This document shows, piece by piece, positions 46,209 through 49,241 of a DNA stretch of 64,000 nucleotides. A program made the translations under genes and the position numbers. The notes below the pieces were generated by a model that saw nothing but the letters and a program-made list of their open reading frames with translations, was not told the DNA's origin and made no database searches. Origin of the DNA: Alphaproteobacteria bacterium (GTDB lineage: Bacteria > Pseudomonadota > Alphaproteobacteria > CAAGCB01 > CAG-977); contig CAAGCB010000012.1 of NCBI GenBank assembly GCA_900768185.1, positions 15,461-79,460 of the forward strand, in the 5' to 3' direction. Every line of letters starts with the position of its first letter. Position 1 is the first letter of the stretch.

Positions 46209-49200
46209 ATGTCCGATGTCATCGCCGAATATGTCGCCGCTTTGAACAACCGCTATAAAACGGGATACGCCAAGGAACACACTTACCGCGCCGATTTGCA
46301 AAGTCTTTTTGAACGGTTGATGCCGGATGTGCGGGCGATCAACGAACCGTCGCACATGCGTTGCGGCGCGCCCGATTTTATGATGATGCGGCGCGGCGTC
46401 CCGTTCGGTTTCGCCGAAGCCAAAGACGTGGATAAAAATCTGGATTCCGCGGATTACACGGAACAATTCACCCGTTACCGCAACAGTTTGAACAACCTGA
46501 TTATCACCAACTATCTGGAATTCCGTTTTTTCCGCGACGGCGAAGAAGTCGCCCGCGTCCGCCCCGCGCGATTGGAAAACGGAAAGATCGTCGGAAATCC
46601 CGACGAATACGAACGGTTTTCGCTGTTGACGGACGCGTTTGAACATTATGACGGCGTGACGATCAAATCGGCGGCGCGTCTGACGAAAATCATGGCGGGC
46701 AAAGCCAATTTGCTGGCGGACGTTATCAAGCGGGCTTTGCGGGAAAAAGACGATTCATACGCGAACAAAACTTTGCGCGAACAATACCAGGCGTTTCAAA
46801 AGGTTTTGATTTCCAGTCTGTCAACCGATGAATTTTCGGACGTGTACGCCCAGACAATCGCTTACGGGCTGTTTGCGGGGCGGTTGAACGCAAACAATCC
46901 GGCGGGCTTTTCGCGCGAGGAGGCGGGCGCCTGCATTCCGCGTCAAAACCGTTTTTTGCGTCAGCTTTTCAACTATATCGCGGGAAACGACATTGATGAC
47001 AGAATCAAATAGATCGTTGACGATCTGGCGCGGATTTTCGCCGCCGCGGATCTGTCCGCCGTTCTGAAAAATTACGGCAAGGCGACGGCGACGCACGATC
47101 CTTTGATCCATTTCTACGAAACTTTTTTAAGCGAATACAATCACGAGGAACGCAAACTGCGCGGCGTATGGTACACGCCGAAACCCGTCGTGAATTTTAT
47201 CGTGCGGGCGGTGGACGACTTGCTGAAAACGGAATTCGGATTGCCCGACGGGCTGGCGGACGATTCGACGTTTTCACGCACGATCACCGACGCCAGATTC
47301 GGCGACAAGAAAACGGGCAGGCGTTCGGCGACGGTTACGCAACGGGAATACCGCGTGCAGATCCTAGACCCTGCGACGGGAACGGGAACTTTTTTGGCGG
47401 AAATCGTGCGGCAGGTGCATGAAAAATTCGCCGGTAATTCGGGAATGTGGCAAGGCTATGTCGAAAAATGCCTGTTGCCGCGTCTGAACGGGTTTGAATT
47501 GCTGATGGCGTCCTATGCGATGGCGCATTTAAAGCTGGACTGGGTTTTGAAAGAAACGGGGTACGAAGCCAAAAGCGACAATCGTTTGCAGATTTACCTG
47601 ACGGACAGTTTGCAGGAAGCGCACCCCGACACGGGAACGATGTTCGCGTCGTGGCTGTCGAACGAATCGCAGGAAGCCGACAGGGTAAAGCGGGAAACGC
47701 CGATTATGGTCGTTCTGGGCAATCCGCCGTACAACGGGGAAAGCCAAAACAACGGCGAATGGATCAGAAACCTGATCGAAGTCTATAAGCGTGAACCGTC
47801 GGGCGGGGCGTTGCGGGAACGCAATCCGAAATGGCTGAACGACGATTACGTCAAATTCATTCGCTACGCCGAACATTACGTCGAACGGAACAACAGCGGG
47901 ATTTTGGCGTACATCAGCAATCATTCTTTTTTGGACAATCCGACTTTTCGCGGTATGCGGGCGCATTTGCTGCGCACGTTCGACGAGATTTACATTTTGG
48001 ATTTGCACGGAAATTACAAGAAAAAAGAAATTTGCCCCGACGGTTCGCCCGACGAAAACGTGTTCGACATTCAGCAGGGCGTCGCGATCAGCCTGTTCGT
48101 TAAAACGGGGGAAAAAGAAAAAGACGCTTTCGCGCGGGTGCGTCACGCCGACCTGTTTGGAAAACGAGAGGTTAAGTACGCTTTTTTGGCGGAAAAATCC
48201 TTAACCGATATTGCGTTTCAAACATTGGAAAACCGTCCGCCGCATTACTTTTTTACGCCGAAAGATTTTTCAAACGCCGACGAATACGAGCGGGGCTTTT
48301 CCTTGAACGAACTGTTTCAAATCAACAGCGTCGGAATCGTGACGGCTGACGACAAAACGTTGATTGACGGCGATAAAGCCGTTTTGATTGATAAAGTCGA
48401 ACGCAAATTCGGAATTGCGGCAGATGAAAACAAAATTCAAAAAATAGCCTACCGTCCGTTTGACGACAGATTTGTTTATTATGACGGGGAATTGCTGGAA
48501 CGACTGCGCGAACAGGTTATGCGCAACTTTATCGGGCGGGAAAACATCGGGCTGGTTGTAAAAAGAGGATTTCCAAATCCTGAAAGAGCGGTCGGCTTCG
48601 TTTCAAATAAAATAACGGATTTTCGATGCTGGTCTTGTGCGGGTATGCAAGGAGGCGATTATCTTTTCCCGCTTTACACGTTTGATCCGTTGGACGGGGC
48701 GCGGCGGGTGAACTTCAATGACAAAACCGTGCGAAAGATTCAAAAAACGGCGGGCGGCAAAGCGTCGGAAACCGAAATCTTCGATTATGTCTACGCCGTT
48801 CTGCATTCGCCCGCGTACCGTGAAAAATACGCCGCTTTTTTGAAAATCGACTTTCCGAAAATCCCGTATCCGGAAAACGCGGAAAGTTTCGCGCATTTGG
48901 CGGAAATCGGCGGAAAATTGAGGAAAATTCATTTTCTGAACGTTGATGAAAACATCGCGCGGGGCATCAGCTTTCCCGTGTCGGGCGACAATGTTGTTGA
49001 TAAGCTTTCGTATCGAAACGGGCGGGTGTACATCAACGCGGCGCAATATTTCGACAACGTGCCGCCGGCGGCTTGGGAATTTTTCATCGGCGGATATCAG
49101 CCCGCGCAAAAATGGCTGAAAGACAGAAAAGGACGGACTTTGGATTACGCCGATATCCGGCGTTATCAAAAAATCGTCGCCGCTTTGGCGCAGACAGACG

Positions 49201-49241
49201 AAATCATGCGCGGGGAGTTATCGCGTCATGGCAAGTTTTGA
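46209..49241 (+). pseudogene. MmeI-family type IIL restriction-modification enzyme (endonuclease + gamma-class N6-adenine MTase + TRD) interrupted by one in-frame TAG at 47010-47012
   Basis: N-terminal PD-ExK motif GAPDF...GFAEAK; MTase motif I ILDPATGTGTFL and motif IV LGNPPYNG; the ORF track splits it into 46209-47012 and 47103-49241, which are in the same frame (both coordinates divisible by 3), so a single stop codon separates them. Confidence 0.65.

Follow-up and report, generated by a model that had tools for sequence, protein, structure and literature searches.

A 64,000-nucleotide stretch of contig CAAGCB010000012.1 (assembly GCA_900768185.1, Alphaproteobacteria bacterium; hereafter the window) carries, at positions 46209-49241 of its forward strand, a single-chain restriction-modification (R-M) gene that is interrupted by one in-frame amber codon. 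We think it likely that this codon is a genuine and recent nonsense mutation in a DrdV-like type IIL gene, an ordinary inactivation and no special regulatory device. An initial annotation, made from the letters of the window, had assigned the gene to the MmeI family and had offered three explanations for the stop: a recent nonsense mutation, a sequencing error, or partial read-through that limits expression of a toxic enzyme. The first of these is favoured by the results below, as the stop replaces an invariant tryptophan, the codon is TGG in relatives and the lesion appears recent.

One amber codon interrupts a single reading frame

The list of open reading frames (ORFs) for the window holds two in this region, 46209-47012 (+ strand, ATG start, 267 amino acids (aa)) and 47103-49241 (+ strand, TTG start, 712 aa). 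Their starts differ by 894 nucleotides (nt), or 3 x 298, and so share a frame. Translated in that frame, 46209-49241 comprises 1011 codons with only two stops, the terminal TGA and an internal TAG at 47010-47012, which falls between ...DIDDRIK and IVDDLARIF.... The translation bears out the earlier description of two ORFs in one frame, divided by a single amber codon with no frameshift. The motifs quoted in that description are all found at the predicted residues (GAPDF 53-57, GFAEAK 67-72, DPATGTGTFL 387-396 and NPPYNG 505-510), and their key residues are invariant or nearly so across the family. The parts of the gene are laid out as follows.

46209-47009, + strand: N-terminal part of 267 codons, with the PD-ExK nuclease domain (about residues 1-150) and most of a helical connector (about residues 155-267)
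46374-46376, 46416-46418 and 46422-46424, + strand: catalytic codons D56, E70 and K72, within the N-terminal part
47010-47012, + strand: amber codon TAG in place of TGG for the invariant Trp268, through G→A at 47011
47013-49241, + strand: remainder past the stop, which takes in the last stretch of the connector, the methyltransferase and, at about 48390-49211, a Type ISP-type recognition domain, and closes with TGA at 49239-49241
47166-47180, 47367-47393 and 47721-47732, + strand: methyltransferase motifs X (VWYTP), I (DPATGTGTF) and IV (NPPY)
47103-49241, + strand: 712-aa ORF from the first in-frame TTG past the stop, a separate gene in public annotation, with no evidence for its translation

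Whether the two halves might be unrelated proteins, a possibility raised at the outset, was checked by alignment. The N-terminal part matches positions 2-265 of the 1096-position PADLOC profile REase_MTase_IIG PDLC03610 (E 2.5e-66) and the C-terminal part matches the remainder of the same profile (E 2.2e-245). With the joined sequence as query, thousands of homologs were found, the top one at 99% identity, and we analysed the best 120. These are single chains of 995-1096 aa that cover both halves, with the exception of one 799-aa fragment at a contig end. The earlier view of one chain that combines restriction, modification and specificity, with a PD-ExK nuclease, a gamma-class N6-adenine (N6A) methyltransferase and a C-terminal recognition domain, thus holds. 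The catalytic residues D56, E70 and K72 are present in 119 of the 120 homologs, and the column of the stop is occupied by Trp in every one.

The same picture emerged at the DNA level. Twelve closely related copies of the gene from other samples (L002-L004, L006-L009, L010-L013 and L014) all have TGG at the site, and over the 90 nt around it five of them (L002-L004, L006 and L007) differ from the window solely by the G→A change at 47011. Three copies (L004, L006 and L007) are syntenic with the window and encode a full-length ortholog; their flanks are 98-99% identical to those of the window, which shows the gene to be intact in conspecific strains. The comparison with related strains that had been proposed as a check therefore yielded an intact gene with TGG at the site.

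The lesion appears to be recent

Among the 120 homologs, 320 columns are conserved in at least 118 sequences, and the window departs from them at one, residue 268, where the stop lies. Codons 1-267 show no nonsynonymous and five to eight synonymous differences from the closest orthologs, and the nonsynonymous differences past the stop concentrate in the recognition domain, the family's variable part in every strain. Measured against six related DNA copies, the changes private to the window comprise 13 synonymous, 6 nonsynonymous and 1 nonsense, indicating that selection acted over most of the window's branch. Two substitutions, P766L and R896H, are private to the window among the top 40 homologs; we considered them as signs of older decay and rejected them, since both fall in variable columns of the recognition domain. 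Judged by these substitution patterns, the stop would thus be either very recent or not real.

The gene encodes a DrdV-like enzyme related to Type ISP systems

Protein families were assigned with Pfam at E <= 0.01. The N-terminal part matched no family, and the C-terminal part matched four: Type_ISP_C (PF18135; E 1e-73, 248.9 bits), N6_Mtase (5.9e-11), Eco57I and MmeI_Mtase, the last being borderline at 27.6 bits against a cut-off of 27. Neither an MmeI recognition-domain nor an MmeI C-terminal family is among these four, and no helicase family is among the Pfam matches of the protein. In sequence searches of the PDB (E <= 0.001 for a single sequence, E <= 0.01 for a profile), the only solved relatives were DrdV (7LO5), the Type ISP enzymes LlaBIII and LlaGI and, weakly and before motif X, type I HsdM. 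DrdV was the best match, at E 2.8e-45 with the single sequence and, over the methyltransferase and recognition domain, at 5.4e-60 with the profile, where the N-terminal stretch scored only 3.2 bits; the profile matches to LlaBIII and LlaGI had E-values of 4.7e-55 and 8.1e-52. The MmeI chain (5HR4) was absent from the matches of both searches.

An AlphaFold model was built on P0002, an intact homolog that is 98% identical (predicted local distance difference test score (pLDDT) 78, predicted template-modelling score (pTM) 0.64). The model consists of a mixed alpha/beta N-terminal domain (about residues 1-150), helices at 155-317, the methyltransferase and a C-terminal domain. Some 230 residues of helices occupy the space between nuclease and methyltransferase, and residue 268 lies within one of them, helix 264-279. 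In a Foldseek search of the PDB with this model, DrdV came top, with an alignment along the full chain (E 2e-43, some 1130 columns, template-modelling score 0.55), followed by LlaBIII and LlaGI (about 1e-35 to 1e-33) and, far behind, by BrxX/PglX, MmeI (3.5e-12, 12% identity) and BpuSI.

DrdV has the same four-part layout, and its methyltransferase and recognition domains are of common origin with those of Type ISP enzymes (bioRxiv 10.1101/2021.01.06.425610). The window protein is of the same length class and has the same order of nuclease, connector, methyltransferase and recognition domain with no helicase; D56, E70 and K72 and motifs X, I and IV occur in order and are conserved in the reconstructed frame and its homologs. 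The PD...ExK residues of the two proteins align, although in a weak stretch of the alignment. The differences are that identity to DrdV is only 21-22%, that sequence comparison scarcely picks up the N-terminal domain and connector, and that the window copy is truncated at residue 267. Similarity to DrdV thus extends along the whole chain at the level of fold, and the reading frame is broken by the TAG at 47010-47012. With LlaGI and LlaBIII, which are Type ISP enzymes, the window protein shares a homologous methyltransferase and recognition domain, including the Type ISP C-terminal specificity domain. Unlike them, it is about 1010 aa long in place of 1400-1580 aa and lacks the superfamily 2 (SF2)/RecA-like ATPase motor between nuclease and methyltransferase, and it is therefore not expected to cleave by translocation and collision. 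We class the protein as a DrdV-like type IIL/IIG enzyme that is related to Type ISP but has no helicase, and the window copy is most probably a pseudogene homologous to this family. Enzymes of the family are further marked by one-strand methylation and by cutting at a set distance that requires several sites.

The assignment to the MmeI family did not hold up, given the Type_ISP_C domain, the failure to find MmeI by sequence and DrdV as the best structural relative. That family is defined by similarity over the entire length of MmeI at BLAST E < 1e-20 (Morgan et al. 2009, PMC2731913), which the window protein does not show. It does share with MmeI (5HR4), the type IIL founder, the combination of PD-ExK nuclease, helical arm, gamma-class N6A methyltransferase and recognition domain on one chain, but the two have no significant sequence match and only the distant fold match given above. 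The window protein has a conserved PD...ExK motif (D56, E70 and K72), which may or may not correspond to D70, E80 and K82 of MmeI, as the two sequences gave no alignment. In MmeI-family enzymes a Trp is also conserved in the arm that precedes the methyltransferase (W287 of MmeI; PMC2731913). We considered an equivalence of W268 with MmeI W287 or M.EcoKI W115 and did not adopt it: a connector-only profile reached HsdM (3KHK) at E 0.002, with the Trp column in a gapped stretch.

Predicted consequences of the stop

The event we favour is a recent G→A transition at 47011 that would have turned the TGG of Trp268, in the helical connector, into TAG in a gut Rhodospirillales-like alphaproteobacterium. 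Translation would then end after residue 267, inside the connector, and the predicted product would consist of the nuclease and part of the connector, or dimerisation region, without methyltransferase or recognition domain. In DrdV the core dimer interface consists of the helical connectors, and the DNA on which each nuclease acts is bound by a different subunit (bioRxiv 10.1101/2021.01.06.425610). Because cleavage by DrdV needs assemblies of DNA-bound subunits, by analogy the fragment, which could not be targeted to DNA, would be unable to restrict. Methylation would most probably be lost as well, since nothing supports re-initiation downstream; a methylase-only product, which had been suggested to start at TTG 47103, would be possible in principle but is unsupported. 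As a matter of general reasoning, with both activities on one chain they would be lost together, and no restriction would persist without protective methylation. The mutation would be a first step in the ordinary decay of an R-M gene.

Alternative explanations for the stop

Several observations weigh against a genuine, fully inactivating mutation. The TAG allele was seen only in the window's own assembly, from metagenome sample SAMN02333965, and exact look-ups of the two truncated products returned only the NCBI and ENA copies of that assembly. The ENA copy, scaffold BRIT16-1_SAMN02333965_METAG-scaffold_35 (L005), matches the window without a difference over 22 kb. When exact patterns with R at the mutated base were scanned for, the GTDB species genomes and the JGI metagenomes gave one locus each, both with TGG. 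The lesion, unique to sample SAMN02333965, is also too recent for selection on the downstream part to be judged, and a residual methyltransferase product is possible. An artefact in an otherwise intact gene, whether an error of consensus or assembly or a minority variant that a mixed population of strains left fixed in the metagenome-assembled scaffold, would account for an allele seen in a single sample and for the fully functional look of the rest of the gene, and a single-base substitution is the form that a consensus error is expected to take. We nevertheless regard it as unlikely. Consensus substitution errors are rare in a 183-kb scaffold, and a real mutation is, a priori, far more probable than an error that happens to create a stop. 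The gene class is often inactivated, and two further alleles among the relatives are independently broken. One is a frameshift shared by L010-L013, from four samples, with TTT→TT at gene position 1794 (window 48002) and a second 1-nt deletion; the other, in L014, is a frameshift near codon 784 in a different recognition-domain variant that occupies the window's own genomic setting. Loss of the gene thus recurs in this lineage, and this speaks for a real mutation in the window over an error. There is also precedent: disrupted MmeI-family genes in databases proved to be truly disrupted on re-sequencing, and the lesions of NmeAIII, DraRI and ApyPI were real in their source organisms and repairable by comparison with homologs (Morgan et al. 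2009, PMC2731913). The window case resembles these as a single lesion in a well-conserved single-chain R-M gene, but differs in being a nonsense codon at an invariant Trp. On balance we infer that the base call is real.

A gene that keeps part of its function is also improbable in our estimation, whether through amber read-through that yields a little full-length enzyme or through a restart at TTG 47103 that yields a 712-aa orphan methylase. The 742 codons downstream are undamaged, with methyltransferase motifs X, I and IV still present along with the complete recognition domain, and TTG 47103 precedes motif X; it is the only candidate restart that retains this motif. This codon is, however, a weak start 91 nt past the stop. 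None of the 17 in-frame ATG, GTG or TTG codons in 47103-47586 is preceded by a Shine-Dalgarno-like sequence, whereas the gene's own start at 46209 has GGAG 8 nt before its ATG; the first in-frame ATG (47445) already lies beyond motif I, and no promoter-like site was found in 45700-47400. The 712-aa product would moreover be without most of the helical connector, the dimer interface in DrdV. The proposal that the stop is partially read through to limit expression fared no better: all 120 homologs and all 12 related DNA copies lack a stop at this site, and the stop is therefore not programmed; no suppressor tRNA was seen in the window, whose sole tRNA gene is Ala-CGC. Decoding of TAG as an amino acid, be it pyrrolysine or a reassigned code, has nothing in its favour beyond the in-frame TAG itself. 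Three other window genes, for RuvB, TolR/ExbD and a PTS EIIA-type protein (PtsN), terminate at TAG at full domain length, so TAG is an ordinary stop in this genome; the homologs have Trp, and no TAG, at the column, and the window holds no matching tRNA. Recoding, by a suppressor tRNA or otherwise, was rejected on these grounds and is effectively refuted.

A further variant concerns an inverted repeat at the stop.

47011-47026, strand not assigned: inverted repeat AGATCGT-TG-ACGATCT, in which the mutated base forms the outermost pair; the ancestral sequence is GGATCGTTGACGATCT

The G→A change at 47011 turns GGATCGTTGACGATCT into this repeat and thereby lengthens its arms to 7 bp. A template switch at the quasi-palindrome would give the same change, and chance is equally possible (about one in three for a random substitution). 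The amber allele might in principle be a restriction-minus, modification-plus form, expressed as the 712-aa TTG 47103 product or by leaky read-through, to which the gene switches recurrently via the quasi-palindrome, GGATCGTTGACGATCT → AGATCGTTGACGATCT. We hold this to be very improbable. If it were true, a templated G→A would be favoured at the Trp268 codon, and restriction would be shed while the epigenetic mark is kept.

The gene occupies several genomic settings

The same gene, at 94-98% nucleotide identity, is found in at least three genomic settings.

Setting 1, the window with L004, L006 and L007: phosphoglucomutase gene, 382-aa gene, R-M gene, 234-aa and 584-aa genes (opposite strand), LysR gene
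Setting 2, L002 and L003: between an alpha/beta-hydrolase gene and thyX; the shared DNA is window 45955-49213 (L002 9744-13005)
Setting 3, L010 and L011: beside a copper ATPase gene, with an upstream flank common to L008, L009, L012 and L013

The boundaries of homology between the three settings are sharp, with no mobility gene alongside; the match to L008 and L009 covers window 46156 onward, and L008 comes from a metagenome-assembled genome (isolate RUG12246). Megablast against plasmids gave no match, and among phages the only matches were two Listeria phage sequences at 24% identity. The 382-aa, 234-aa and 584-aa neighbours were considered as partners and rejected, as they have no Pfam family above cut-off and are absent beside the gene in L002; their absence there indicates that the enzyme is autonomous. 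The gene is an autonomous, mobile accessory gene. Within its recognition domain, unrelated sequence stands in for the segment at about window 48346-48665 in L008-L014, and for part of it (48558-48660) in L006. The domain is therefore a mosaic, which suggests that specificity is swapped between alleles.

The conserved neighbours without a Pfam family above cut-off are the following.

44683-45831, + strand: 382-aa gene
49218-49922, - strand: 234-aa gene
50157-51911, - strand: 584-aa gene

Of these, the 234-aa gene, on the opposite strand, shares 24 nt with the 3' end of the R-M gene. Antisense to the phosphoglucomutase and 382-aa genes runs a 963-aa open frame (42928-45819, - strand), likewise without a Pfam match above cut-off. 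This frame is probably a shadow ORF, if an unusually long one for 55% G+C. In L006 and L007 an extra 516-aa gene (no Pfam family), absent from the window, lies between the 584-aa gene and the LysR-type regulator. Here about 52122-52181 of the window stands against 15965-18087 of L006, and identity over the following 2.2 kb falls to only 87%, which marks a variable region.

A hairpin precedes the start codon

Immediately upstream of the gene lies a hairpin.

46158-46208, + strand: hairpin GAACTCTCC..CCGCCTGATTTCAGGCGG..GGGGAGAG followed by six T, abutting the start codon

Folding of 46130-46225 as RNA gave -32.7 kcal/mol with a z-score of -2.1, and the 3' arm GGGGAGAG contains the sole Shine-Dalgarno-like GGAG. 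The hairpin is identical in all 12 related copies, across three upstream contexts. It stands just before the ATG in L002-L004 and L006-L013, where the T-run is 6, 7 or 8 long, so that the spacing from Shine-Dalgarno sequence to ATG varies. No second copy was found within the window, and Rfam gave no match at E <= 1 for either the hairpin or the stop region. It resembles an intrinsic terminator, or a hairpin that masks translation, carried along with the gene.

Meaning for annotation and for the lineage

The finding has little significance beyond annotation. The 267-aa and 712-aa genes should be merged and flagged as one DrdV-like type IIL pseudogene, neither an MmeI-family gene nor a nuclease beside a separate methylase. 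Intact orthologs of 95-99% identity, P0001 and P0004 among them, could represent a new specificity. For the organism, the three genomic positions and three independent disruptions fit the known turnover of R-M systems and point to strain-level gain, movement and loss of a defence gene in a gut and rumen alphaproteobacterial lineage.

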